A stretch of 64,000 nt of DNA from an uncultured bacterium (GTDB taxonomy: Bacteria; Bacillota_I; Bacilli_A; RFN20; CAG-826), in the NCBI GenBank assembly GCA_949293175.1, contig CASFCI010000002.1, forward strand, positions 27,765 through 91,764, read 5' to 3'. This document shows positions 8,641-25,209 of the stretch, piece by piece (position 1 is the first letter of the stretch; each line of letters opens with the position of its first letter). A program made the position numbers and the translations under genes. A model generated the notes under the pieces. The model was not told the DNA's origin and did no database searches. It was given only the letters and a program-made list of their open reading frames with translations.

Positions 8641-9966
8641 TTATTCGGCCTTAGCGGCGGCGCAAGGGGATGACATCTCCTTGAGGGCGCTTAGCTCGCC
8701 TAGCGGAGCGGGGATCTTGTCGACCTCGGCCCCGCGGGAGAGCACGGCGTAGTAGACCGCGGTGCCAAGCTCGTCATAGGGGAAGCACTGCTTCTCCTCG
8801 ACGAGGGTGAATTCCTGATGGTTCTGCAGGAAGGACTCCACCGCGAGGTGGCCCTCCTTCTTGGAGATGGTGAGGATGGCGTAGATGAGCTTGCCGCCGT
8901 CATCGACGTATTTGGCGCAGCCCTCCAAGGCCTTCTGCTCGCCCGAGATGATCCCGTCCATCGCGTCCTTGTCGAAATGAAGCAGGAAATCCGGGGATGT
9001 CGGGACCTGGTCAAAGGCGGTCGAGTCCGGCAGGCAGATGACCAACTGCTGCTTGCCTGGCACCGAGGCGTCCATCGCGGTCGGGTCGGTGGTCTGGAAT
9101 AGGTTGACGTTGTGCAGGCCCTTCTCGCGGATTAGGCGGGTGAGGGCGAGCTTCGAATCGAGCTCGGAGGTCGCGATGTTCATCGCGAGGGCATCCCCGT
9201 AATGCTCGACCAGCTCAAGCTCGGCGCCGCCGGAGGCCTTGCCGCAGTAAAGCAAAGCAGAGCTCGGGGCGGAGATGACGTGGCTATCAAGCAGCTCCTT
9301 GACGCGCGGGCGGATCTCGAAGATCTTGCCGCGGCGGTATTCCTCATAGACGCGGAGCGGCTTCTTGCCGGCGTAGAGATAGACGTCCTTTATCGAGGTG
9401 GCGGCGAAATCCGGCGAGGTGCGGAGCTCCTCGAGCTCGGGCAAATCGCGGAAGCGGACGTAGGTCACGTAGGGCCTGGCCCACTTCTTCAAGGTCTTGA
9501 AGGTATTCGAGTAGCCGAAATGGTGCAGTATCTTGCAAGCCCAGATCGGGGCATTGTAGCGAAGGCTCAGGTAATCGAGGCTAGAGTGGTCGACGTCATC
9601 GGGCATGTAGCGGTTCTCCTCGCCCTCTTTGTCGAGGATGGGGAGCGCGATGGCGGCCTTCTCCTCGCCAAGCAGGCCCTTGACGGCCTCGTCCATGTCC
9701 TTCTTCTCGTAGCGGCGGCAGAAGTAGTTGTTCGCCATGCCGATCATGACGATGCGCTTGTCCGCCTCCTCAAGCCCCTCGACCTTGTCGAGCAGCCTGC
9801 TGAAGAGGATGGAATGGCGCAGGGCGCAGCCGACTAGGCTCGCCACGTCGTGGCGCATCGGGCGGATCTCGACCTCCTTCTGGAACTTGTCCTTCAGGGC
9901 GGTGCCGAACTCGGTGCCGTCGAGCACGGCGTTGAGAATCTCAACCGACAAATCTAGTTCTTTCAT
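8641..9966 (-). CDS. RsmB/Sun-family homolog. It has a NusB-like N-terminal domain and an RNA m5C-methyltransferase-like C-terminal domain. Both catalytic Cys motifs appear substituted.
   Basis: The ATG at 9966 is preceded by AAGGAG. The C-terminal segment LPDSTAF...GGKLIYAILTISKKE aligns by eye to RsmB DAPCSATG...GGTLVYATCSVLPEE, giving PC to PD and TCS to TIS. Its position, between a conserved hypothetical and rlmN, matches rsmB in Bacillus. Confidence 0.55.
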   Translation of the reverse strand: MKELDLSVEILNAVLDGTEFGTALKDKFQKEVEIRPMRHDVASLVGCALRHSILFSRLLDKVEGLEEADKRIVMIGMANNYFCRRYEKKDMDEAVKGLLGEEKAAIALPILDKEGEENRYMPDDVDHSSLDYLSLRYNAPIWACKILHHFGYSNTFKTLKKWARPYVTYVRFRDLPELEELRTSPDFAATSIKDVYLYAGKKPLRVYEEYRRGKIFEIRPRVKELLDSHVISAPSSALLYCGKASGGAELELVEHYGDALAMNIATSELDSKLALTRLIREKGLHNVNLFQTTDPTAMDASVPGKQQLVICLPDSTAFDQVPTSPDFLLHFDKDAMDGIISGEQKALEGCAKYVDDGGKLIYAILTISKKEGHLAVESFLQNHQEFTLVEEKQCFPYDELGTAVYYAVLSRGAEVDKIPAPLGELSALKEMSSPCAAAKAE

Positions 9967-9976
9967 GTTTTTCTCC

Positions 9977-10537
9977 TTATTTCGCCCCGCCCTTCTTCTT
10001 GGCGACTTCCTCCTCGAAGGAGGCGAAGGCATCGCCTAGGAATATCTGATTGGGGTCGTTGTAATCCAAATCCGCCCTGTCGGCGGGATTGGGCAAAGAG
10101 GGGTCTTCCCCGTCCTCATCGTTGTCGTGGTGGCATTCGTCATGCTCATCCTCGCCATAGTCGATGCTGACGTCGGCTTCCTTGATGTTGTCCTCGCTCA
10201 GGTAGCGGGGATAGTCGTGGTTGATTCGCTCATGGTGGCGCCCGGGCTCGAAGTACTCGAACTCAAGCTCGACGTGGATGGAGAACTGGCTTAGCGTCTC
10301 CAGGATGTATTCGGCGGCCTTGTCCTCGCACTGCTCAAGCTGCCTGGGTGCGCGGACGACGACGATCGTGTTCCAGCTGGTCTGCTCCGCCCCGGAGTGG
10401 AACACCATTGAGTTGGGGGCGTAGAAATTGATGGCCTCCTCCGGAACGGCGAATATCGAGGCCAGGGCCTTGGTGTGGTCCTTCGAGTAGTGGCCGACCA
10501 CGAATTGGTCGAGGCCTAGGATGCAGATGGTTACCAT
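9977..10537 (-). CDS. Hypothetical protein with a strongly acidic His/Asp/Glu-rich C-terminus
   Basis: ORF of 186 aa. No domain was recognised. Confidence 0.4.
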   Translation of the reverse strand: MVTICILGLDQFVVGHYSKDHTKALASIFAVPEEAINFYAPNSMVFHSGAEQTSWNTIVVVRAPRQLEQCEDKAAEYILETLSQFSIHVELEFEYFEPGRHHERINHDYPRYLSEDNIKEADVSIDYGEDEHDECHHDNDEDGEDPSLPNPADRADLDYNDPNQIFLGDAFASFEEEVAKKKGGAK

Positions 10538-10936: not shown

Positions 10937-12553
10937 ATGAAAATAGCCAAACCAAGTAAAACAGCGGTCAAGAACATCGTCGCCACCTCGCTCATGCTTG
11001 CCATCCTCGCCCCGCTCATATCGTCTTCGATATCCATCGCGGGGTTCGATGAGGAGAGGGCGCAGATCGAAGCGCTATTTAGGCCCGGCGACTCCTTTTC
11101 CTTCGATGGAGGCAAGCAGGGATTCGTCGACAGCATCGATGAGGAAGGCGACCGCCTCGCCTACATAGCCTACCCATACCGCTACCTGACCAATCGCTAC
11201 GCCTTGCCCTCCCTCGCCTCCGATTCGCTTGGGATCTCCTTTTCCTACGGGCGAGCGCCGCAGGATGATTTCGAGGTCGCCCTGCCCAAGCCGATGGCGG
11301 ACCGCATCTTTGACAAAGGGTATTATGGGCTGGGCGATCTGCCCGACCTCGAGTCGCTGATAGGATGCAATATGCCGTTGCAGGTACCGCTTCTAGAGGG
11401 GATCGACCTGACCATCTCCGGCATATTCGTTGCCCCTGAGCAGCCAGATGGGGATCATGCGAATGGCAGCTTGGACAACACGCTTTTGCTGGGGGAGCGG
11501 GCCTATGTGATATCGAAAGCCGCAAAGAACCGGATCCACTCCTTCTACTCCCAATACGTCGCGAGCATCGGCGAGGAGGATGAAGGCTGGCTTTACGCGC
11601 CCTATGGCGAGGGGCCGCTCATCGTCGGGGCCAGGGCGGCCGAGCGCGCTTGCCTTTTCGGCGACTACACCCCGGTCAGCGTGGAAATATCCTCCGCCAG
11701 CGGGTCGAAGACCATATCCTGCCAAAGGGATTCATTGATATCCGAGCTTGAGGACGCGGCCATCGCCGAGGCCCTTGGCGAGGGGTATTCGCCAGCGCGC
11801 CGCGAGGACATCGAGGCCCTATACGGTGGCATCAACGTCGCGGATTACTACGATTTGGCCGATATGGAGGTGGCCAGGGCCGCCGAGCGGCAATTCGTGT
11901 CCTTCCTGCAGCAGGCCATCGGCCAAGGCGCCCTCCCGGAGGGGATGAGCTACGAAGGGGTGCCGATCGGGGGCATCGCCCCGGAGTACGCCTTTGGGGT
12001 CTTCGAGGGACGGATCGATGAGGTGAATGGCCTCTCCCCCTCCATGATCACTCCGCTTCGTCTGGAGGGCTTCCCCACGCAGAAGCGCGCCGCGCTGAGA
12101 ATGCTTTCGATTTCCCGAAATAGCGGCCTCTACCTGGCCTCGCCCTACCCAAGCCTAGCGGATAAGGGCCGGAGCCAATTCATAATACTGGCCTTGGCGG
12201 TCCCCTTGGCGGTGGCCATCCTGGCCTTGAAGATCTTCTATTCGCGGAAGAAGGCTGGCGAAGGCGAGGGCATGGAGGCAAGTGATGCCGCATTGGAAGG
12301 CGTTTCCGCCGCCGCAGCGGCCTTGCCCTCGTTCCTGCTTTTCTTCCTGCTCGCGCGGTTTAGCCCATATGGGATCTCCGCCGCGGCGTCCGGATTGGCT
12401 TTCCCGAGCCTTCCCTTCTTCGGGATCCACCTTGGCGTATTCCTCACCGGGGTCGCCATTTGCCTATTCGCCGATCTGCTCTTCGGCTTGCTCAGGAGGC
12501 GAAGGCGGAAGAGGTTCAGCGAGGTCACCTGTCCGCCGACCAGCGGCCAGTGA
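10937..12553 (+). CDS. Membrane protein with a large extracytoplasmic domain and C-terminal TM helices, possibly FtsX-like. It is a paralog of 12..1676.
   Basis: It has an N-terminal signal/anchor, a conserved SFLQQAIGQGALPEGMS block and a C-terminal hydrophobic bundle followed by RRRRRKR. Confidence 0.55.
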   Translation: MKIAKPSKTAVKNIVATSLMLAILAPLISSSISIAGFDEERAQIEALFRPGDSFSFDGGKQGFVDSIDEEGDRLAYIAYPYRYLTNRYALPSLASDSLGISFSYGRAPQDDFEVALPKPMADRIFDKGYYGLGDLPDLESLIGCNMPLQVPLLEGIDLTISGIFVAPEQPDGDHANGSLDNTLLLGERAYVISKAAKNRIHSFYSQYVASIGEEDEGWLYAPYGEGPLIVGARAAERACLFGDYTPVSVEISSASGSKTISCQRDSLISELEDAAIAEALGEGYSPARREDIEALYGGINVADYYDLADMEVARAAERQFVSFLQQAIGQGALPEGMSYEGVPIGGIAPEYAFGVFEGRIDEVNGLSPSMITPLRLEGFPTQKRAALRMLSISRNSGLYLASPYPSLADKGRSQFIILALAVPLAVAILALKIFYSRKKAGEGEGMEASDAALEGVSAAAAALPSFLLFFLLARFSPYGISAAASGLAFPSLPFFGIHLGVFLTGVAICLFADLLFGLLRRRRRKRFSEVTCPPTSGQ

Positions 12554-12574
12554 TTGCCTTCGGCCTCATGAAAC

Positions 12575-12607
12575 CAAAACCGCCCTGGGGGGACCCAAGG
12601 CGGTTTT
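12575..12607. terminator. Bidirectional rho-independent terminator between convergent genes
   Basis: The hairpin AAAACCGCC-CTGGGGGGACCCAA-GGCGGTTTT is flanked by a T-run on the plus strand and an A-run on the other side. Confidence 0.5.
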
Positions 12608-12619
12608 TGCCATATGAAG

Positions 12620-15600
12620 CTATTGCAGGGGGTAGGAGGCTAGGGAGTTGGCGCCAACCGCGATCTCCTTGACCTGCCCGTCGACGTGGACCTTGACGGT
12701 CTTGGCAGCTCCGGGGTTATAGACGACCGCCGTCTTGACTCCGTCTTTGACGTAGACCGAGCCGGAGGCGAACTCGCCCTCGACGTAGGCGGCGCCGTCC
12801 TTGTGGCCGAGGCTCGCGAGGGCCTGCACCATCCAGTAGGAGCCGGACAGCTCGGAGGGGTAGTCGTCGGCGAGGATGGCGGAGGCATCGAAGTCCTCAA
12901 GCGCCCCCTCGGGGTCGTAGATGGCCTTGACCGCCCACATGTTGGACTGCCAGGTCCGCGGCGCCCCGCCGACGCGGCTCTCCATCTCCTCGTATATGTC
13001 CTGCAGCACGGCGAGCTCGCCGTCGTCTAAGGCATAGGATGAGACGTATTCGCCGGTCGGCAGCCAGTGGATGCCATAGATGAACTCGGGGTTGGAGCCG
13101 AACCAGGTCTGGTGGTCGTTCTTGGTACCCCAGACCATCCCGACCGCGTGCGCGGACTTGGCTAGGTCCTCGTTCCAGTTGTCGCCGTCGTAGTTGAACC
13201 AGTACTGCTTGACGGCCTCCAGCTCATTGACGAAGCCCCAGATGGCGGCGTCTTCCGACTGCTGGTCCTCGGAGACCAGCGATAGCAGGTAGGCCGCGAC
13301 CCAGGAGTTGAGCGCCTCGCCGGAGCTCTCCTGGTTGTTGCCGTCTCCGGTGTCGGCCTTGCCGTCGGCCCAGGAGTGGCCGGCGTAGGGGTCGAAGGTG
13401 CGGAAGGTCGGGAACATGGAGTCGGACTCGTCGGCATTCATGTACTCCTTCATCTGCAGCTCGGCCATGTCGAGGTATTCGTTCTTGAAGCCCTCGTCAT
13501 AGGTGGCGAGTATGGCCGAGGCGTAGACCAGGTAGCCGGCGGTGAAGTGATGGTCGGATAGCCGCGAGGCGGTGGAGAAGTCGTCGTTGCTCCAGATGAG
13601 CGACCCAGCCACCTCGTCGTAATAGAGGTAGCGGTCGTCGGAGGTCCCGTCGTAGGTATACCAGTCCTTCAGGTCGTCCTTTAGCAGGGAGATGAACTCC
13701 TGCTTGAGGTCGTCGGCCCCGATCTGGTCGGCGATGAGTAGCCCCTGTGAGAGCGGGTAGAGCGCCTTGGCGTTCCAATACGGCCCCGGGGCGTCGATGA
13801 AGTTCTTCTTGCTTTCGGAGAAGCCCTCTTCGCCCGGCTGGTTGCGGTCGAGTAGGTCCTCGAGGTAGCCGCGCATGGTCGCGTCGTCGTAGTCGCCGCC
13901 GGTGGGCTTGGCGAAGCTCGGCAGCAATCCGGCGAAGGATAGGTCATAGGTGAACGAATCGGTCTTGAACAGCTTGAGCTTGCCGCGCATCGTGGTCAAC
14001 TCGACATCGGAAGTTCCGTAGTCATCGGAGTTCTTCCACTGATGCGGGAGCAGCCCCAATAGCGGGTGGTATCCCTTCTCCTCCTCGAGCACATGGACCC
14101 GGTAGCCCATGGTGGTGTGGACGTTGGACGACTCGTGGTCGACCTCGTAGGAGTAATAGAAGGAATCGAGGACGCTGTAGGCGGATTCCTGATAGAAGGC
14201 GGCGTCATCCTTAGAGGAGAGCGAGGAGACGGTCAGGTAGTTCTTGCCGTTGAGATCGATCTCGATCGAGAGGGTCAGGGCCGCGTTGGCGGTGTTGCCC
14301 TGGCTCAACTTGAAGGTCGAGCCCTCGGGGGCAGAAAGCAGGAAGCTCTGCTCGCGGTATAGCGGGGCGCCTAGCCCGGCGTTTGGATAGTTGGAGCCGT
14401 AGCCGTAGTGGGATTTGGGATAGGTGACGATGATGGCGCTTCCGGTATAGGTCGACCGGTTATTGATCTCGTTGCCCTCCAGGTCGTAGAACTTCATCGG
14501 TTCGGCCACCCCGCCGTCGCGGAGGGTGACGGTCGCCTTCGAGGTCGAGAACTCGAAGAATGCCATTGGGCTGCCCTGCGACATGGTGACGACCTCCGCG
14601 ACCTCGTTGGTCGAGGGGTTAACCAAGGCGAGCTTGGCGGAATCCTCGGTGTAGCTGATTATGCGCGACTCCACCGACGAGGTGACCGCGCTGCCCTTGA
14701 CGGTGATGTCCTGGAAGCCGACCGAATGGTTTGAGGCGGTGGTCATGCTGGTTCCGGTGGTGTCTTCGACCTTGAACACCTCGAGGAAGCCATCCCCATA
14801 GTCGGATACCGAGATGCCGGCGGAGCTCGACTTTATCGCTAAGGGGTTGGTCGCGGCGGTGGTCAACCCGCCATGGTTGGCGTAGAAGAAGCCGGAATAC
14901 CAGGTGTTGGTCGGTATCGGCCCCTCGTTGAAGGCCGCGTTGCCAAGATACGGGGTGTCGCCCGGCCTGGCGATGGCGTTCTTCTGATCCTCGCCGGTCT
15001 CAGGGTTCTTGTAGTTGACCGTCGGCGCGCTCGCCCCGCCGCTGAGGTAGCTACCGGAGCCGACCTCATGGGTGGTGAGCCCGCCGTAGGAGCGGTTCCT
15101 GGCGACCTGGCCGGGGATGGTCCCGTTCTCGACGGTGATGGTCCTGGTGGTCGAGTACTTGTCCTCCCCCACCTGCACCTCGTATTTGATCTGGTAGCTG
15201 CCAGCGACGCCGTAGTTGACATTGCCGATTGCCCTCACCCGGTTGGTGAAGTCGACGTCATTGCTGTCTTTGGCGGTCACGCCCTCGAAGACGTCGAAAT
15301 ACTGCCCGACCTTGATGGTCTTGTTGGAAACGCCCTCGAATGTTATCTCTCCGACGACGACCGGGACGTCGGGCTCATCGGAGCTGCTGTCCTCGCCCTC
15401 ATCGGGATCGGTCGATGGGGTGGTGTCGGTGTCCTCCCCGCCATCGGGATCGGTCGAGGAATCGGTATCCTCGCCCCCGTCTGGCTCGGTTGAGGAGCTG
15501 GTGTCGGTGTCATGCCCTTCATCCGGATCGGTTACTGAGCTGGTGTCGGTGTCCTCTCCCCCATCGGGATCGGTGGAGGTATCGGTGACGTCCGGGGTTC

Positions 15601-15742
15601 CGGTGGAGGTCGAAGCTGAGGTCGACGACTCCTCGGTATCGGGTTTGCTCGTCGACTTCGAGGAGCTCGACTCGACCGTGTTGCAGGCGGCGAGGGCCAA
15701 AGCGCCTACGGCCATGGCCCAGAAGATGTGCTTTTTCTTCAT
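12620..15742 (-). CDS. Glycoside hydrolase family 81-like endo-beta-1,3-glucanase, lipoprotein, with an acidic Thr/Asp-rich tandem-repeat N-terminal linker
   Basis: Lipobox LAAC. The motifs SDHHFTAGY, FDPYAGHSWADG and QESSGEALN resemble the GH81 signatures DHHFHYGY, GHSWA and ESxSE as I recall them. Confidence 0.6.
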   Translation of the reverse strand: MKKKHIFWAMAVGALALAACNTVESSSSKSTSKPDTEESSTSASTSTGTPDVTDTSTDPDGGEDTDTSSVTDPDEGHDTDTSSSTEPDGGEDTDSSTDPDGGEDTDTTPSTDPDEGEDSSSDEPDVPVVVGEITFEGVSNKTIKVGQYFDVFEGVTAKDSNDVDFTNRVRAIGNVNYGVAGSYQIKYEVQVGEDKYSTTRTITVENGTIPGQVARNRSYGGLTTHEVGSGSYLSGGASAPTVNYKNPETGEDQKNAIARPGDTPYLGNAAFNEGPIPTNTWYSGFFYANHGGLTTAATNPLAIKSSSAGISVSDYGDGFLEVFKVEDTTGTSMTTASNHSVGFQDITVKGSAVTSSVESRIISYTEDSAKLALVNPSTNEVAEVVTMSQGSPMAFFEFSTSKATVTLRDGGVAEPMKFYDLEGNEINNRSTYTGSAIIVTYPKSHYGYGSNYPNAGLGAPLYREQSFLLSAPEGSTFKLSQGNTANAALTLSIEIDLNGKNYLTVSSLSSKDDAAFYQESAYSVLDSFYYSYEVDHESSNVHTTMGYRVHVLEEEKGYHPLLGLLPHQWKNSDDYGTSDVELTTMRGKLKLFKTDSFTYDLSFAGLLPSFAKPTGGDYDDATMRGYLEDLLDRNQPGEEGFSESKKNFIDAPGPYWNAKALYPLSQGLLIADQIGADDLKQEFISLLKDDLKDWYTYDGTSDDRYLYYDEVAGSLIWSNDDFSTASRLSDHHFTAGYLVYASAILATYDEGFKNEYLDMAELQMKEYMNADESDSMFPTFRTFDPYAGHSWADGKADTGDGNNQESSGEALNSWVAAYLLSLVSEDQQSEDAAIWGFVNELEAVKQYWFNYDGDNWNEDLAKSAHAVGMVWGTKNDHQTWFGSNPEFIYGIHWLPTGEYVSSYALDDGELAVLQDIYEEMESRVGGAPRTWQSNMWAVKAIYDPEGALEDFDASAILADDYPSELSGSYWMVQALASLGHKDGAAYVEGEFASGSVYVKDGVKTAVVYNPGAAKTVKVHVDGQVKEIAVGANSLASYPLQ
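15395..15625 (-). repeat. About five imperfect in-frame tandem repeats of 39-45 bp, encoding TDPDGGEDTDTSS-like units
   Basis: The DNA unit GGTGTCGGTGTCCTC..CCATCGGGATCGGTCGAGG recurs, and the protein repeat is visible in the ORF. Confidence 0.6.
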
Positions 15743-15887
15743 AAGTCTCCTATCTTATATGCGATTTCTATGAAACCGCTTTCACAAAGTATTTTATTTA
15801 TCCGATAAATGGCCGTCAATGGGTAATGAAATCGATTTCTTAGGAATCAATCGGGAAACAATAAAGAGGTTTCTTTCTTCCTAGGAA

Positions 15888-15920
15888 AGGCAAAAAGAAA
15901 GCCGCCGGTTTCGCGGCGGC
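15888..15920 (-). terminator. Rho-independent terminator downstream of the lipoprotein gene 15933..17450
   Basis: On the minus strand, the hairpin GCCGCCG-CGAAAC-CGGCGGC is followed by TTTCTTTTT. Confidence 0.55.
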
Positions 15921-15932
15921 CTGTCGCTAGCT

Positions 15933-17450
15933 TCAGCAAGAGAGCAAGGCGTAGGATGTGCCGGATGTCGTCGTAAGGCCGACGAACATGTGCGTTCCGT
16001 TGATGGTCGATATCCCGCCGGTGGAGGCCGTGGCGTTATCTAGCCCAAGGGTCAACAGCGTTTCGTCGGGGGTCATGATCTTGGCCTCGGAGGAGGTTAT
16101 GGCGCAGGCGACGCCCGAGCCGACGACCGGGTAGATCACGCCATCTATCTCCTGCAGCTTCATATCGGGCCCGTAGACGTAACCGGTGCCGGTCGAGTTG
16201 ATCAGAATCGCGTGGTCATAGCTATATTGCGATGCCAGCAGCGTGTAGTGTCCTTTGGAGATGAGCACTTCGCCCTCGGAGGAGAGGACGCTGGCGTATT
16301 CGCCATCCTTGGCATAGTAGCAATCCATGCCGTAGATCGGGGTGATTGAGTCGTAGGCGGAGAGGTCGGCGGTTAGGCGCATCGAGCGGTCGAAGGCCAT
16401 CTTCAGGGTCGAGGAATAGTAGCCCCCGTCGGTGGCGTATAGGCCGCTAAGCAGGCTGGGGTTCATCTCCTCGATGATCTTGCCAGAGGAGTTTATCAGG
16501 ACCTTCTTGCTCTCCATGACGGCCTTCGAGCCCCTTATCTCGTAGATCGAGACCCCGGCGAGGTCGGTTTTTCCCTTCCGGGAGGAGTAGGCCCCGATGT
16601 AGGTTCCCAATAGGTAATCGAGGTTTATGTCCTTCAGGTCGCCGGAAAGCAGGTCGAAGGAGAGCGACCTCAGGTCGTATTTGGTCCCGTTTTGGTAATA
16701 GGAGTATTCCTTGGCGTCGTCGGGGAGTGCGAACGACTCCTGGATGAGCAGCTTCCCGTCGACCACGACCGCCGTGTTGATGTTGAGGTCGAAGCTCGGG
16801 GCGGGATAGGAACTGTACACCTCGCCCCGCTCGTCGATTACGTAGACGAAGTAGTCGCCGACGCTTATGCGGTATCCATCTAGTCCCAGCAGCGCCCCAT
16901 CGATGGCGCTGGGCCAGCGCTCGGAGTCGAAGATGCTCTGATTCGAGATCGAGGGCGCATCCTTCCCTTTCTCATATCTGGCGTAGGTGAGCGATCCGGA
17001 GTCGGTGATGACGACCTCGTCGTGTCCGTTCTCCTCGAAGGTGAACCAAGAAGATGAGGAATGCAGCTTGTTCCCGAACCCATCGACCAGGGAATACCCG
17101 CCATTGGATTCCTGGAAATAGAGCAGGAACCCGCATAGGGGGCTCACCCTGACCTCATAGTTAGGCGTCTCCGAGAATGAGGCGATGTGCTCCCCGTTTA
17201 TTAGCGAATAGGCCAAGAGCCCATCGCCGCCGCGGGCGATCGCGCAGCCCTTGGCGAGCCCGTTGTCGACGACGTCGAGGTTGGAAAGCGAGGAGGGGGC
17301 GGAGGCGGTCCAATCGCCTTCCTCTGGCATGGCGGCGGCGTTGGCCTCGGCCAGATCCGATGGCAAAAGCGGCTTCTTCGCGCCTTGGCAGGAACATAGA
17401 AGCAAGGTGGCGGACAATACGACGATGGTAATGTTTTTCTTCATTTTCAC
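15933..17450 (-). CDS. Lipoprotein, hypothetical
   Basis: MKMKKNITIVVLSATLLLCSCQ shows a lipobox. No domain was recognised. Confidence 0.5.
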   Translation of the reverse strand: MKMKKNITIVVLSATLLLCSCQGAKKPLLPSDLAEANAAAMPEEGDWTASAPSSLSNLDVVDNGLAKGCAIARGGDGLLAYSLINGEHIASFSETPNYEVRVSPLCGFLLYFQESNGGYSLVDGFGNKLHSSSSWFTFEENGHDEVVITDSGSLTYARYEKGKDAPSISNQSIFDSERWPSAIDGALLGLDGYRISVGDYFVYVIDERGEVYSSYPAPSFDLNINTAVVVDGKLLIQESFALPDDAKEYSYYQNGTKYDLRSLSFDLLSGDLKDINLDYLLGTYIGAYSSRKGKTDLAGVSIYEIRGSKAVMESKKVLINSSGKIIEEMNPSLLSGLYATDGGYYSSTLKMAFDRSMRLTADLSAYDSITPIYGMDCYYAKDGEYASVLSSEGEVLISKGHYTLLASQYSYDHAILINSTGTGYVYGPDMKLQEIDGVIYPVVGSGVACAITSSEAKIMTPDETLLTLGLDNATASTGGISTINGTHMFVGLTTTSGTSYALLSC

Positions 17451-17521: not shown

Positions 17522-19723
17522 TCAGTAATCGAGCGGGTCGACGTCAAGGTAGACCCTGACCCCGCCTTTCCCGTCTATTCCCTTGGCGATCTTGGCTATC
17601 TCCGTTTTCGTGAGGTCGGAATCGCGGTATTTGACCAATAGCTCCCGGCGGTACATCTCCCCGTTTTTCTCGATGTATGGCACCAGCGGCCCGAGCGTCG
17701 AGGTGAACTCTATCTTGGCGGACTCGATCTCCTGCTTGGCGAGGTAGGCGGCCTCGATGGCGCGCTCCGCCTCCTTGGCGGCGAAGATCATGTTGCACAG
17801 ATGGGAGAAGGGCGGGTATTTGCCCGACCGCCTTATCTCCATCTCCGCCCGGTAGAACGCGTCGTAGTCCTGCTTGGCCCCGAGGGTAATGGCGTAGTTG
17901 GTCGGGTTGAAGGTCTGTATCAGAGCCTCGCCGGGCTTGCTCCCCCTGCCAGCCCGCCCCACGGCTTGCGCCAGCAAATCGAAGGTCGACTCCGAGGCCC
18001 GATACGAGGGTATGGAAAGCCCCACGTCGGCCAATATGACCCCGACCAGCGTCACCAGCGGGAAGTCGTGCCCCTTGGCGATCATCTGCGTCCCGACCAG
18101 TATGTCGAAGCCGCCCTCGTGGAAGGAGCTGGTTATCTCCTCGCCCCGCGTTTTGACTTTGGCGACGTCGGAGTCGAGCCTGCCGATGCGGGCTGTAGGG
18201 AATATCTCGGAAAGCACCTTGACGACCCTTTCGGTCCCAAACCCGGCCCGCTCGAGCCGGGCGGAGCCGCAGTTGGGGCAAGTCCCATCGTAGGGCTCGA
18301 GGTATCCGCAATGGTGGCACTTCCACATCATGTCGGTGGTGTGCAGCGTCAGATGGGCGCCGCATTCGGGGCAGACGAACAGGTGCCCGCAGTCAGGACA
18401 GGTCGAGTAGGAGCAATAGCCCCGCCGGTTCAATAGCAGCACGGTCTGCTCGTGATTGTCGAGCCGCTGCTGAATCTTTTCCAGCAAAAGCTTGGAGAAC
18501 ATCTTCCCCCGGGGGTCTAAGGCGCGGCGGCGTGAGAGGTCCACTATCGTGGTTTTTGGAAGCGGGAGGCTATTGACCCGCTTGTCGAGGCGGCATAATC
18601 CGTATATGCCCTTCTCGGCTTTGGCGCGGCTGACGATGCTCGGGGTGGCCGAGCCGAGCACGACCTTGCATTTGTTTTGCCTCCCGCGGAGCAGCGCCAC
18701 CTCGCGGGCGTGGTAATAAGGCGCGGCGTCCTGCTTGTAGGACTCCACATGCTCCTCATCGAGGATGATGAGGCCGATGTTCTCTAACGGGGCGAATACG
18801 GCGCTTCGGGCCCCCACCACCACCTTGGCCTTGCCCGAGGCGATGCGACGGTACTCATCGTATTTCTCCGCCGGGGTGAGCATGGAGTGGAGTATCGCCA
18901 CCTCCTCGCCGAAGCGCGAGATGAAGTAGCGGACCATGGCCGGGGTGAGGCTGATCTCGGGGACCAGCATCAGGATCGACTTGCCCTGCTGCAGGTAGTG
19001 GTCGCTTAGGTGGAGGTAGACCTCGGTCTTCCCCGACCCGGTCACGCCCTGCAGGAGATAGACTTCCTTATCGCCGTTGATTATCTGTTGGTAAACCTCG
19101 TCCTGCTCCAGCGTGAGGGGGAATGGATTGGTACGCGGGATCGAGGCGACCTCAAGCCGCCTCCGCTCGACCTTGACGACCTTGAAGCGGCCCTTATCGA
19201 TCAGGGCCTTCACCACCGCGGGGCTGCCGGCCTCACCCTTCTTGGCCCGCCCGGACTGCCTGACCAGCCGGAAGGCCTCCAATTGCTTTGGGGTGAGCCC
19301 CTCCTCGGAGTCCTCAGCCACCTCGACGAGCTGGTCGTAGGCGACCTTCGGGCCGTTTTTGTAGCTGCCCCGCGGCTTAAGCGAAGACGGCAGCATGGCC
19401 TGCAGCACCGATATCCGCGAGCAGAGGTAATAGGAGGCGATGGCGGAGCTTAGCTGCAGCAGTTCCTGACTTAGCAATGGCTTGTCGTCGATGAGACGGC
19501 TGATGAAGGAGACCTCGAAGCCGAGCCGCGCCTGTATTTGTTCCTTGCCCTCGTCGGTGTGGGATACGCGCAGCACGAAGCCGACGAGCGGCCTCGGCAT
19601 GGCGCCGAACCTGACCTCGACCCGCATGCCGGCGCAAACCGGGGTGTCGTCGGGGCAAAGGTAGGTGAACGGCCTATCCAAAGAGGAGGCGCCGTATTCT
19701 ATGAGGGTCTCTAGTATCTGCAT
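17522..19723 (-). CDS. priA: Primosomal protein N' (PriA helicase)
   Basis: Walker A GVTGSGKTEVYL, DEEH, and the zinc-binding cysteine cluster CPDCG...CPECG...CHHCG...CPNCG. Confidence 0.9.
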   Translation of the reverse strand: MQILETLIEYGASSLDRPFTYLCPDDTPVCAGMRVEVRFGAMPRPLVGFVLRVSHTDEGKEQIQARLGFEVSFISRLIDDKPLLSQELLQLSSAIASYYLCSRISVLQAMLPSSLKPRGSYKNGPKVAYDQLVEVAEDSEEGLTPKQLEAFRLVRQSGRAKKGEAGSPAVVKALIDKGRFKVVKVERRRLEVASIPRTNPFPLTLEQDEVYQQIINGDKEVYLLQGVTGSGKTEVYLHLSDHYLQQGKSILMLVPEISLTPAMVRYFISRFGEEVAILHSMLTPAEKYDEYRRIASGKAKVVVGARSAVFAPLENIGLIILDEEHVESYKQDAAPYYHAREVALLRGRQNKCKVVLGSATPSIVSRAKAEKGIYGLCRLDKRVNSLPLPKTTIVDLSRRRALDPRGKMFSKLLLEKIQQRLDNHEQTVLLLNRRGYCSYSTCPDCGHLFVCPECGAHLTLHTTDMMWKCHHCGYLEPYDGTCPNCGSARLERAGFGTERVVKVLSEIFPTARIGRLDSDVAKVKTRGEEITSSFHEGGFDILVGTQMIAKGHDFPLVTLVGVILADVGLSIPSYRASESTFDLLAQAVGRAGRGSKPGEALIQTFNPTNYAITLGAKQDYDAFYRAEMEIRRSGKYPPFSHLCNMIFAAKEAERAIEAAYLAKQEIESAKIEFTSTLGPLVPYIEKNGEMYRRELLVKYRDSDLTKTEIAKIAKGIDGKGGVRVYLDVDPLDY

Positions 19724-19774: not shown

Positions 19775-20347
19775 TCATCTTGCCTTTTCGGCTTCCCTTA
19801 TTATGGAGGCGATCTCCCCGGCGGCCCTAGAGACGGAATCGTTTAGGACCACGTGGGAATAGAGGTGGCTCATCGTGAGCTCGGTCCTGGCTTTGGCTAG
19901 ACGCTCCTCGATGACCTCCTCGGTCTCGGTCTTCCTTCCCCTTATCCGCTCCTCAAGCTCATGGATGGACGGCGGCATCAGGAAGATGGATATGGCGTCC
20001 TTGCACTTGGCGAGGACCTTCATCGTCCCGGAGACCTCGATCTCGAGCAGCACGTTCTTGCCTTCGCGGCGCATCTGCTCGACCTTGTCTAACGGGGTGC
20101 CGTAGTAGTTGCCGACGAACTCGGCATACTCCAGCAGGTTGCCCTGCTCTATGTTCTTCTCGAACTGCTCGCGGGTGACGAAGTAGTATTCCCTTCCGTC
20201 GACCTCGCCCTCCCGCCTTTGCCGGGTGGTCATGGAGATGGAATAGAAAAGGTTGAGGCTCTTGTCCTTCATCAGCTCCTGGCGCACAGTGCCCTTGCCG
20301 ACCCCGGATGGCCCGGACAGGTTTATGAGCAGCCCTTTCTTCTCCAT
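19775..20347 (-). CDS. gmk: Guanylate kinase
   Basis: GPSGVGKGTV P-loop and REGEVDGREYYFV. The start was chosen at MEKKGLL. Confidence 0.85.
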   Translation of the reverse strand: MEKKGLLINLSGPSGVGKGTVRQELMKDKSLNLFYSISMTTRQRREGEVDGREYYFVTREQFEKNIEQGNLLEYAEFVGNYYGTPLDKVEQMRREGKNVLLEIEVSGTMKVLAKCKDAISIFLMPPSIHELEERIRGRKTETEEVIEERLAKARTELTMSHLYSHVVLNDSVSRAAGEIASIIREAEKAR

Positions 20348-20437
20348 AAAAGTATATCGATAAATATACCGGCCACTAGGAGGCCATTTCAAGCCCGATA
20401 TCGGCTATCTGCTTACTTTTTCGATGGGTTTCCCCCC

Positions 20438-23005: not shown

Positions 23006-24364
23006 ATGGTCAAGCTCGGAAGATTCGGCGCATATTGCAAGGCGATGGATGCCTTGCTGACTGGGAGGAAGGTTCGGGCCTTCGCCTTTTTGGGCGGCAA
23101 CGCCTACGCCTGCTCGGTCGGAAGGTACGAGACTCTGCTTTTCCTTCTCGGGTCGACCCAATCGATATACGTCACCGACTCGGAGGTAAAAGGCGCCAAA
23201 TCCGACCAGTTCCTGTTCGCGCTGAAGAAGCACCTCTCGGAAGGGAGGATCAACCGCATTGCCCAGCTCGGCGGGGATAGGATAATGGACATCTCGCTAA
23301 CCGGGATGGACGAGGTATACCACGAATCCGACTACCACCTAATAGCCGAATGCCTGCCAGGGCATGGCAACCTCATACTGACCGACGACGGCTACTCGAT
23401 AATCTCGGCCAGCTCCTACCTCGCCGAGCGTCTAATCGCAAAGGGGGCGAAATACCTGCCCCCGGAAAGCCATCCGCAGGTGGAAATCGACGAATCGGAG
23501 TTCGATCTGCAGGATTTTTTCGACTCCGAGCGCGCGCAGGAGGAGAAAAGAAGGCAGGACGCGACCAAGAAGCTGCTATCGCCCCTTCTAAAGAAGTGCA
23601 AAACCCGGATAAAGACATTGGAAAGGAAGCTATTGATGCTATCCAAGGACCAGGAGGCCGCCACCGCCCACCTTTCCGACAAAGACAAGGCGGACTACCT
23701 CCTTACCAATTTGGATACCATCGCCGAGGGATCCGAGTCGTTCGACTACTTCGGCGAGGAGTGCCCGCTCGACCCCAAGCTGTCGATACCAAAGAACGCC
23801 GAGAGGCTATACAAATCGGCCAAGAAGGCCAAGAAGACGATCGAGGAGGCCAAGCTCAACCTGGATAAGGCCAAGCAGGAGCTAGAGGAGCAGCAATCGT
23901 TCCTGGCGCTGCTCCAATCGGTCTCCCGTCAGGGGGCGGAGGCCCTATTAAGCCAGCTAAGCGAATCGAAGAAGGAGCGGGTCTCGCCATCCATCTATCC
24001 CTATGCGGCCTATCGCGGCGAAACCTGCTACCTAATCGGCCACTCGGCCTCGAGCAACTCCTTTCTATCGTTCGTCTACGACACCGACCCGACCCATTAT
24101 TGGCTCCACGTCAAGGGGACCCACGGGTCGCACGTGATGATAAGGAAGTCCAATCCAAGCGATGAGGAGATCACCCTCGGATGCGAGTTGGCCCTGCTCT
24201 CGTCCAACCTATCCTCGGGCGAGGTGATATATTGCCCGCATAAGAACATAAGGCGCGGCAAGGCCAATGGGCAGGTGATACTCGGGGAGTACCGCTCGGC
24301 CTACATAAGGAAGGTCTCCGATGGGGCCAAGAGGATATACCAAAGCAGGGAGAAGGCGAAATGA
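23006..24364 (+). CDS. rqcH: NFACT-family RNA-binding protein (RqcH / fibronectin-binding protein A-like, Rqc2 homolog)
   Basis: N-terminal NFACT-N-like region, central coiled coil, and the C-terminal NFACT-R/DUF814 motif WLHVKGTHGSHVMIR. Confidence 0.65.
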   Translation: MVKLGRFGAYCKAMDALLTGRKVRAFAFLGGNAYACSVGRYETLLFLLGSTQSIYVTDSEVKGAKSDQFLFALKKHLSEGRINRIAQLGGDRIMDISLTGMDEVYHESDYHLIAECLPGHGNLILTDDGYSIISASSYLAERLIAKGAKYLPPESHPQVEIDESEFDLQDFFDSERAQEEKRRQDATKKLLSPLLKKCKTRIKTLERKLLMLSKDQEAATAHLSDKDKADYLLTNLDTIAEGSESFDYFGEECPLDPKLSIPKNAERLYKSAKKAKKTIEEAKLNLDKAKQELEEQQSFLALLQSVSRQGAEALLSQLSESKKERVSPSIYPYAAYRGETCYLIGHSASSNSFLSFVYDTDPTHYWLHVKGTHGSHVMIRKSNPSDEEITLGCELALLSSNLSSGEVIYCPHKNIRRGKANGQVILGEYRSAYIRKVSDGAKRIYQSREKAK

Positions 24365-25209
24365 CCGAGCTCGAGCAAGCCAGGCGGATCGCCGCAAAGA
24401 TAGGGGACGAGGTGGAGATTAAGCCCCTCTTTGGCGGCACGAGCAACGCCATCTTCGCCTCGGATGGTTTCGTTTACCGGATAAAGCGGCCCCATCAGGT
24501 CGATGAGATCGATTCGCCAGAGCGCGAGATGCTCGCGGTCGACCTCTCGATGGGCTGCCCCTGCCTGCCGGAGGTGGTTTACTTCGATGGGCGCGGGAAC
24601 AAGGCCGAAAGGCGCCTAAAGGGCATCACCGTGAGCCAGAAGGGCGTCGACGAGGCGGATTTCCCCGCGATAATCAAGGCCATCGAGCAATTGCACGCCA
24701 TGCCGGAATCCGAATACTCATTCAACCTCGTGGAGCGCTATCGGCAATACAAAGACCATTCCGGAATAAAGGGATGCATCTCCCCTTTCGAACGCAGCGT
24801 GATGGCCTACGCCTTCCGCCGGATCGAGCAGTTCCCCCGCCGCCTTTCGCACAATGACCTATGGGGCGGGAACATCCTAATCGACGGCGGGCAGGCCAAG
24901 CTCATCGACCTCGAGTTCGCCTCCACCGCCCCCGAGGTTTTCGACTACCTCTCCTTCGTTGAGGAGAACGACCTGCCGCTAGAAAAGGCCAGGCGGTTCT
25001 TTGAGCTCTCCGGACTCCAGATGGACTTCGACGATTTCGCGCTGCTCAGCTACTCGCTCGACATCATCTGGGCCTACTGGGCCCTATGCCGGGAGAAGGA
25101 AACGGGCAAAGGCAAAGACATCGCAAAGGCAAAACTAAGGCGGCTATATAGAGGGCGGGCCATCATAAAGGCCCGGCTCGGCTATTACGTCGACCTCATC
25201 GCCGACTGA
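24361..25209 (+). CDS. Phosphotransferase-family protein (APH / choline kinase-like fold)
   Basis: HNDLWGGNILID is the Brenner HxDxxxxN motif and IDLEFA is the DxE motif. The start overlaps the upstream stop as ATGA. Confidence 0.6.
   Translation: MTELEQARRIAAKIGDEVEIKPLFGGTSNAIFASDGFVYRIKRPHQVDEIDSPEREMLAVDLSMGCPCLPEVVYFDGRGNKAERRLKGITVSQKGVDEADFPAIIKAIEQLHAMPESEYSFNLVERYRQYKDHSGIKGCISPFERSVMAYAFRRIEQFPRRLSHNDLWGGNILIDGGQAKLIDLEFASTAPEVFDYLSFVEENDLPLEKARRFFELSGLQMDFDDFALLSYSLDIIWAYWALCREKETGKGKDIAKAKLRRLYRGRAIIKARLGYYVDLIAD

Follow-up and report, generated by a model that had tools for sequence, protein, structure and literature searches.

The RsmB-like gene and its operon

A gene for a protein related to RsmB, the methyltransferase producing 5-methylcytosine at position 967 (m5C967) of 16S rRNA, lies in a 64,000-nucleotide stretch of DNA from an uncultured bacterium (contig CASFCI010000002.1 of GenBank assembly GCA_949293175.1, positions 27,765 to 91,764 of the forward strand). 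This whole stretch is called the window below, and positions are counted from its first letter. The RsmB-like gene is the second cistron of a tightly packed minus-strand operon (Table 1), and its product is a conserved pseudo-methyltransferase. An original prediction, made from the sequence alone, had placed such a pseudo-methyltransferase at the rsmB locus, with the coordinates and strand that are confirmed in Table 1; this view is now strongly supported by the family-wide loss of the catalytic motifs, the kept fold, purifying selection and the orthologous slot.

The open reading frame (ORF) called by the program is longer (8641..10032, minus strand), but the true start is the ATG at 9966. 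The start at 10032 was rejected, since homologs begin with MKE or MQE at the position of 9966, the Shine–Dalgarno sequence lies at 9973-9978, and the longer frame overlaps with the upstream gene. The latter encodes a DUF1904-like protein and is translationally coupled to the RsmB-like gene, the stop codon of which is followed after 11 nt by the start of rlmN.

In Bacillota, the usual order of genes around rsmB is priA/def/fmt - rsmB - rlmN - prpC - prkC - rpe, and the RsmB-like gene occupies the rsmB position in it. The order around the gene is fixed: it is found directly upstream of rlmN-PP2C-kinase-rpe in 81/81 loci, i.e., in the window and the best 80 of 135 GTDB species-genome stretches encoding a relative.

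Table 1. Features of the RsmB-like gene, its product and the neighboring genes (window coordinates; aa, amino acids; pI, isoelectric point).
Feature	Position	Strand	Description
RsmB-like gene	8641..9966	-	441 aa + stop; catalytically degenerate rsmB ortholog
N-terminal all-helical NusB-like domain	9631..9966	-	aa 1-112; helices at 2-111 in the AlphaFold (AF2) model; motif LVGC(E/A)LRH; pI 4.9
Central domain	9271..9591	-	aa 126-232; keeps the canonical SLRYNxPxW motif (E. coli P146, W148); sole basic part, pI 9.5
Rossmann-type methyltransferase-like domain	8719..9270	-	aa 233-416; fold intact, catalytic and S-adenosylmethionine (SAM)-binding motifs lost
Motif I	9226..9255	-	E. coli ILDLCAAPGGKT (ILDLCAAPGG(KT)) vs window ALLYCGKASGGA (LLYCGKASGG); family consensus LLYNGNxDSS
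Motif II			E. coli Asp277 vs window A265 or T266, depending on the alignment
Motif IV	9019..9033	-	E. coli D322-A-P-C325-S vs window L312-P313-D314-S315-T316
Motif VI	8851..8898	-	Window GGKLIYAILTISKKEG vs E. coli GGTLVYATC375SVLPEEN; T-C375-S replaced by I364-L365-T366
After motif VI			E. coli PEEN vs window KKEG
C-terminal tail	8644..8718	-	aa 417-441; poorly conserved, predicted local distance difference test (pLDDT) <50, absent from distant family members
Shine–Dalgarno AAGGAG	9973..9978	-	Strong; 6 nt upstream of ATG 9966; overlaps the upstream stop codon TAA (9977-9979)
DUF1904-like upstream gene	9977..10537	-	186 aa; tautomerase-superfamily (MIF-like) N-domain and acidic Cys/His-rich tail; candidate partner
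rlmN	7574..8629	-	Radical-SAM rRNA/tRNA methyltransferase; apparently intact
PP2C phosphatase (prpC-like)	6837..7577	-	Same operon; Pfam labels in related loci
Ser/Thr kinase (prkC-like)	5965..6840	-	291 aa; its ATG (6840) overlaps with the stop codon of PP2C
Ribulose-phosphate 3-epimerase (rpe)	5324..5968	-	Last conserved member of the syntenic block
priA	17522..19723		Upstream of the operon, set apart from it by three inserted genes
gmk	19775..20392	-	Upstream of the operon

Fold, motifs and conservation

The curated models score the RsmB-like protein far under their family cut-offs. The PF01189 profile matches it with 17.7 bits (cut-off 27) and only over aa 342-392, the NCBIfam RsmB model PRK14902 with 40.3 bits (cut-off 319), and TIGR00563 with 17.3 bits (cut-off 269); the NusB family PF01029 was not detected in the Pfam scan. 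By more sensitive methods, the protein is unambiguously a full-length RsmB homolog. Thus, hhalign aligned the family profile with E. coli RsmB at 96.3% probability (aa 135-412 vs 141-429), and a profile of eight canonical RsmBs gave 49.9 bits for the window protein (aa 126-433 in the numbering of the long ORF) vs 531-688 for canonical members. A confident AF2 model (pLDDT 88.9; predicted template-modeling score, pTM, 0.83) was built from 27 homologs. Its best matches found by Foldseek in the PDB were 2yxl and the E. coli Fmu structures 1sqf/1sqg, aligned over the full length (about 440 columns, template-modeling score, TM, 0.73-0.76 for the best and 0.68-0.76 for all matches to these three entries, 14% identity, E of about 1e-18 to 1e-19), followed by RsmF, Nop2, NSUN4 and NSUN6. 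The model hence displays the complete RsmB fold, comprising the NusB-like N-domain and the class I Rossmann methyltransferase domain. The claim of a kept NusB-like N-domain stands by structure (440 columns aligned to Fmu) and fails by sequence, as PF01029 is not detected. The alignment to PF01189 proposed for locating the motifs returned a real match below the cut-off, and the motif positions were corrected by other alignments.

The positions of both catalytic cysteines were established with phmmer against 2yxl, and the full register with hhalign, MAFFT L-INS-i (E. coli RsmB together with six metagenomic canonical RsmBs) and hmmsearch with the canonical profile, all being mutually concordant. 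In these alignments, the motif IV cysteine corresponds to S315 and the motif VI nucleophile (C375) to L365. That both cysteines are gone was therefore predicted correctly, although the exact substitutions (PC to PD and TCS to TIS) had been read in a register off by one and two residues; the true changes are PC to DS and TCS to ILT. The degraded SAM motif had been aligned (DxCAAPGGKT vs LLYCGKASGG) exactly as by hhalign. The losses extend to the motif IV aspartate (D322, now L312), to CAAPGGK of motif I with the lysine of its PGGK, to the acidic residue of motif II, to the QD motif upstream, and to the basic pair RRxP after motif IV. The aspartate of motif III is partly kept (D294; D51/E11 among 82 close-relative sequences). 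A conserved alternative cysteine substituting for the lost ones was considered and rejected: none exists in the methyltransferase-like domain across the family, the sole conserved cysteine being C47 of the N-domain. Homology is thus combined with the loss of catalytic and cofactor-binding residues, which defines a pseudoenzyme.

Relatives of the protein are numerous. The word-indexed search returned 28 homolog clusters, and the exhaustive profile search of 1.84 billion representatives gave 6,165 profile hits, with 192 clusters at E <= 1e-30. The closest relative (98% identity) belongs to Candidatus Alloenteromonas pullicola, and others to Ca. Enteromonas and to metagenome-assembled genomes (MAGs) named “Bacilli/Mollicutes bacterium”. 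This lineage, which we take to be the GTDB order RF39, is placed by NCBI in Bacillota incertae sedis. Several GTDB records (L021, L029, L036, L047, L052, L062, L068, L077 and others) show the synteny of the lineage under evidently mislabelled titles of “cleanbin” MAGs, e.g., Escherichia coli, Prevotella sp., Faecalibacterium prausnitzii, Roseburia hominis or Lachnospiraceae. Annotation of the proteins varies as well: IMG wrongly labels the degenerate member P0166 “16S rRNA (cytosine967-C5)-methyltransferase”, and NCBI calls other members “hypothetical protein”.

The gene is present as one intact copy in 81/81 loci; intact ORFs were likewise seen in the 135 or more GTDB species representatives encoding a relative and in the top 150 representatives of the 50%-identity clusters. 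The ratio of non-synonymous to synonymous substitution rates (dN/dS, Nei–Gojobori) is 0.01-0.11 in more than 30 closely related pairs, e.g., 0.089 between the window and L002 (14 non-synonymous and 44 synonymous differences), as for a pseudoenzyme under purifying selection. The median identity to the window counterpart is 43.5%, similar to the values of 47.9% for rpe and 53.0% for PP2C when the same pairs of genomes are compared.

The pattern of conservation within the former active site is peculiar to the family. Among the 82 close-relative sequences, the motif IV column (315) holds S80/A1/C1 and the motif VI column (365) Y61/F10/L7/N2/S1/P1, with F318, D319, P325, D326, G358, Y362, T366, K370 and E371 being near-invariant and Arg at column 322 persisting in most relatives. 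A broader set of 160 full-length sequences was composed of the listed representatives from the exhaustive search and the full-length homologs from the word-indexed search. In none of these 160 was a cysteine found at column 365, as in none of the 82, or a real PGGK loop; column 365 is unconstrained (P46, N23, Y22, D20 and others), and T366, K370 and E371 are each present in 145-157 sequences. The original prediction had named a cysteine at the motif VI position as a finding that would overturn it, and no such residue turned up in the window protein or in either set.

Nine distant representatives out of the 160 (P0027, P0054, P0055, P0068, P0098, P0105, P0115, P0128 and P0137) keep the motif IV cysteine in a P-x-C-S context, e.g., PDCSKFD or PHCTRFD, although they lack the SAM loop and the nucleophile of motif VI. 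As they keep a cysteine at exactly that column, they validate the register independently. Comparison of the sequences also suggests a stepwise decay, in which the nucleophile and the SAM loop would have been lost first and the motif IV cysteine later.

The transition from canonical to degenerate proteins can be followed by sequence and by gene order. Starting from the most distant members, a further search arrived at the canonical RsmBs P0212 and P0213, which display the motifs LD(x)C(A/G)APG(S/G)K, DAPCLGLG and YSTCS(I/L)NKKEN; a subgroup including P0143, P0151 and similar sequences keeps LG..RKRP(D/E) after motif IV and forms a bridge to canonical RsmB. The canonical P0213 lies in the order priA-rsmB-rlmN-PP2C-kinase(PASTA)-rpe-TPK. 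The degenerate members (X) lie in the orders gmk-priA-DUF1904-X-rlmN-PP2C-kinase-rsgA-rpe-TPK (P0143), gmk-priA-(169 aa DUF1904-like)-X-rlmN-PP2C-kinase (P0027) and gmk-priA-X-rlmN-PP2C-kinase-rpe (P0155). Since canonical and degenerate members share the operon slot, the gene is an rsmB ortholog that degenerated in place and no stray paralog. When a profile of eight canonical RsmBs was run on every ORF of 60 aa or more from the 64-kb window and from +/-10 kb of the 80 related loci (about 1.4 Mb), it recovered the family gene only and no second gene of the RsmB/RsmF type; queries with E. coli RsmB, Def and Fmt found nothing further in the window and these loci.

The DUF1904-like gene and the wider locus

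The DUF1904-like gene is found immediately upstream of the RsmB-like gene in 79/81 loci and in two distant loci. It is absent from the canonical P0213 locus and from one degenerate lineage (L085/L086). Its product is better conserved than the RsmB-like protein. According to a structure predicted from database homologs, the N-domain has the DUF1904/MIF-tautomerase fold (4m1a, TMt 0.79) with the N-terminal proline missing. It is followed by a variable acidic Cys/His-rich segment (DEHDECHHDNDEDGED) and then by the conserved PxDRADLDxNDPxQIYLGNAFEGFEE. All 734 homolog clusters of this protein are annotated “hypothetical”. It is possible that the DUF1904-like protein is a metal-binding partner of the RsmB-like protein. 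The idea that this 186-aa protein is a degenerate Def or Fmt retained in the usual slot of these enzymes was rejected by its DUF1904/MIF-like fold.

Some peculiarities of the surrounding genes deserve mention. Neither def nor fmt occurs between priA and rsmB in any locus examined. The kinase comprises 290-296 aa without a PASTA domain in the degenerate-family loci L082 and L084-L086, and 548 aa with PASTA in the canonical-RsmB locus. The usual place of rsgA, the gene of a 30S GTPase, is between prkC and rpe; it is missing there in the window, L083 and L085-L086, and present in L084.

Between priA and the operon, the window carries three genes (10937..17450), seemingly a lineage-specific insertion. 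Their products are a membrane protein of 538 aa (plus strand), a GH81-family glucanase of 1040 aa that carries an Ig-like domain, and a protein of 505 aa without a Pfam match. In the distant relatives L082 and L084, the DUF1904-like gene directly follows priA. Synteny reaches well past the operon: priA is flanked by gmk, an NFACT_N (RqcH-like) gene and an APH/choline-kinase-like gene (window 23006..25209, plus strand), as in L084. On the other side, an ORF of 933 aa (1688..4489, minus strand), which has no Pfam match and an N-terminus resembling a signal peptide, coincides with a stretch of 41% guanine–cytosine content (especially 2001-4000), the window otherwise being at about 60%; this stretch may represent horizontally acquired DNA of a surface protein.

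Possible function and comparison with known systems

Methylation by the RsmB-like protein is implausible because every SAM-contacting motif and the catalytic thiolate are lost; this loss would abolish both SAM binding and cytosine methylation. That the RsmB fold stays intact under strong selection implies a function independent of methylation, which may already have been present in the ancestral RsmB. The modification normally made by RsmB, m5C967, is located at the P site, where it fine-tunes initiation (PMC3439901, PMC3643588), and a model of 30S biogenesis or quality control is preferred for this reason. It is proposed, with a rough probability of 0.55, that the protein is a descendant of rsmB turned into a pseudoenzyme in place, non-methylating and kept for a methylation-independent role, most likely in the pre-30S particle or 16S head. 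It would probably bind the pre-30S particle or the 16S head around helix 31 (h31) as a biogenesis or quality-control factor, possibly acting jointly with the co-transcribed DUF1904-like protein. C967 of 16S rRNA should then carry no methyl group, unless it is modified by some other enzyme. A 16S rRNA in which to check C967 was not found, there being no Rfam match in the window and no rRNA-probe match in the related loci.

Several observations weigh against this proposal. With a pI of 5.3 and a net charge of -15, the protein is acidic, its N-domain has a pI of 4.9 vs 9.7 in E. coli RsmB, and the conserved basic residues of the canonical m5C-methyltransferase motifs (the Lys of PGGK and RRxP) are missing. 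For the original suggestion of an RNA-binding assembly or antitermination-like factor, binding of RNA or the ribosome is at most putative, and some evidence, namely, the acidic character and the lost basic and QD motifs, points the other way. Another intact rsmB may be present in the genome, the search having covered the 64-kb window and +/-10 kb of the related loci. The rsmB gene is non-essential in E. coli, and several groups of Mollicutes have lost it outright (PMC4014445); strong selection for a non-catalytic role is therefore not something one would readily expect.

The same acidity, together with the missing QD and conserved basic motifs, would suit a serious rival, namely, a neofunctionalised scaffold or regulator operating off rRNA, in which the RsmB fold is reused for binding a protein or a small ligand. 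Potential partners are the DUF1904-like Cys/His-rich protein, RlmN, or the signaling pair PrpC/PrkC. Near-invariant residues specific to the family at the former active site (S315, F318, D319, T366, K370) and elsewhere (H51, N138, D337) also fit such a new binding function, as does the DUF1904-like gene adjoining the degenerate genes and not the canonical rsmB. However, this neighbor is missing in at least one degenerate lineage and so is not obligatory, and the residues shared by the broad family are mostly structural ones that canonical RsmB conserves too. A scaffold off rRNA is thus considered unlikely, though it deserves attention next to the pre-30S role.

The pre-30S role may also be extended to both proteins of the coupled gene pair, which might constitute a hitherto unrecognised two-protein module replacing m5C967 methylation, in these genome-reduced gut Bacilli, with a purely structural, possibly metal-dependent step of small-subunit maturation or initiation control. 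This extension is doubtful, more so than the scaffold.

Much less probable is a decaying relic or a functionless paralog redundant with an intact rsmB elsewhere. The very low scores against the curated RsmB models speak for it, as do the dispensability of RsmB and its repeated loss in Mollicutes. Still, the relic version is essentially refuted by the dN/dS values and the family-wide conservation of an intact ORF, to which the strong Shine–Dalgarno sequence and tight operon coupling can be added; a paralog is hard to reconcile with a gene sitting in the ancestral slot instead of a secondary locus.

The chemistry of m5C formation reportedly needs the motif VI thiolate, a mechanism said to have been established by Liu and Santi in 2000 and King and Redman in 2002. 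Slimmest of all are the chances of a still-active methyltransferase (m5C or other) that would bind SAM at a non-canonical site and use another nucleophile. The intact Rossmann fold, the partly kept motif III aspartate (D294) and the motif IV cysteine of nine distant members speak for it. Against it, the glycine loop of motif I, the acidic residue of motif II, the motif IV aspartate and the motif VI cysteine have all disappeared, P, N, Y, D, F, S or L may occupy the unconstrained nucleophile column, and the domain holds no conserved cysteine.

Overall, the RsmB-like protein is new as a natural pseudoenzyme form of the well-known RsmB family; no description of a degenerate or pseudo bacterial RsmB was found in the literature searched. 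A long-standing argument, based mostly on engineered mutants (Nop2, Dim1/KsgA, NSUN4), holds that cells keep rRNA methyltransferases for assembly or quality control and not for the methyl group. Bacteria seem to have been put to the same test by evolution: the entire catalytic machinery was stripped and the protein kept under strong selection throughout a lineage of uncultured, genome-reduced gut Bacilli. Ca. Enteromonas and Alloenteromonas belong to this lineage, and relatives occur in no fewer than 135 genomes at the species level. Should the protein prove to bind pre-30S particles, it would offer a clean system for separating binding from catalysis, and an unmethylated C967 would be predicted at the P site, with a possible effect on the selection of initiator tRNA (PMC3439901, PMC3643588). 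Inventories of rRNA modifications deduced from gene content would be wrong for this clade, its members being labelled either “hypothetical” or as an active methyltransferase. The two-protein module, if true, would prove by a natural example that what is selected in a bacterial rRNA methyltransferase can be its binding and not its chemistry.

Among known systems, the 16S m5C967 methyltransferases RsmB/Fmu of E. coli (1SQF/1SQG) and PH0851 of P. horikoshii (2YXL) share the full-length architecture and fold with the window protein. Structural motifs common to it and E. coli RsmB include PxW (P146/W148), P335-D, G368, Y372, E381 and F389-L390; the differences are C325 to Ser, C375 to Leu and the loss of AAPGGK, the motif II and motif IV aspartates and QD. 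The window protein is acidic, whereas E. coli RsmB and PH0851 are neutral or basic. The closest intact RsmBs are P0212 and P0213, proteins from metagenomic genomes of low-GC Bacilli/Mollicutes-like type and 26-30% identical to the distant family member P0143. With the family they share NKKE downstream of motif VI and a C-terminal EEK-Q-x-FPY, and P0213 occupies the same operon slot. Unlike the family, they keep LD(x)C(A/G)APG(S/G)K, A(L/V)D, DAPC and STCS and match the Pfam families NusB, Methyltr_RsmB-F and Methyltransf_31. With NusB itself, the window protein has in common only a helical N-domain of the type present in all RsmBs; unlike NusB, this domain is acidic and has no PF01029 match, and nothing links the RsmB-like protein to antitermination.

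Degenerate methyltransferases under selection are known. METTL14, DNMT3L and Trm6/Gcd10 have a methyltransferase fold with degenerate SAM and catalytic motifs and a selected non-catalytic role as obligate partners of an active paralog. The RsmB-like protein resembles them as a degenerate methyltransferase retained by selection and differs in that no active paralog was found adjoining its gene or in the window.

Catalysis-independent roles are also known for Nop2, NSUN4 and KsgA. Yeast Nop2, human NSUN1 (p120) and NSUN4-MTERF4 belong to the same NOL1/NOP2/Sun superfamily, and the Foldseek matches include Nop2 of the pre-60S particle and NSUN4 of the mitoribosome. Processing of pre-rRNA needs the presence of the Nop2 protein and not m5C (PMC4510066), and Nop2 is proposed, by analogy, as a functional model for the RsmB-like protein. 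Nop2, NSUN1 and NSUN4 keep both cysteines and SAM binding and methylate large-subunit rRNA in eukaryotes or organelles; unlike them, the RsmB-like family has lost its catalytic apparatus naturally, and in an enzyme of the bacterial small subunit.

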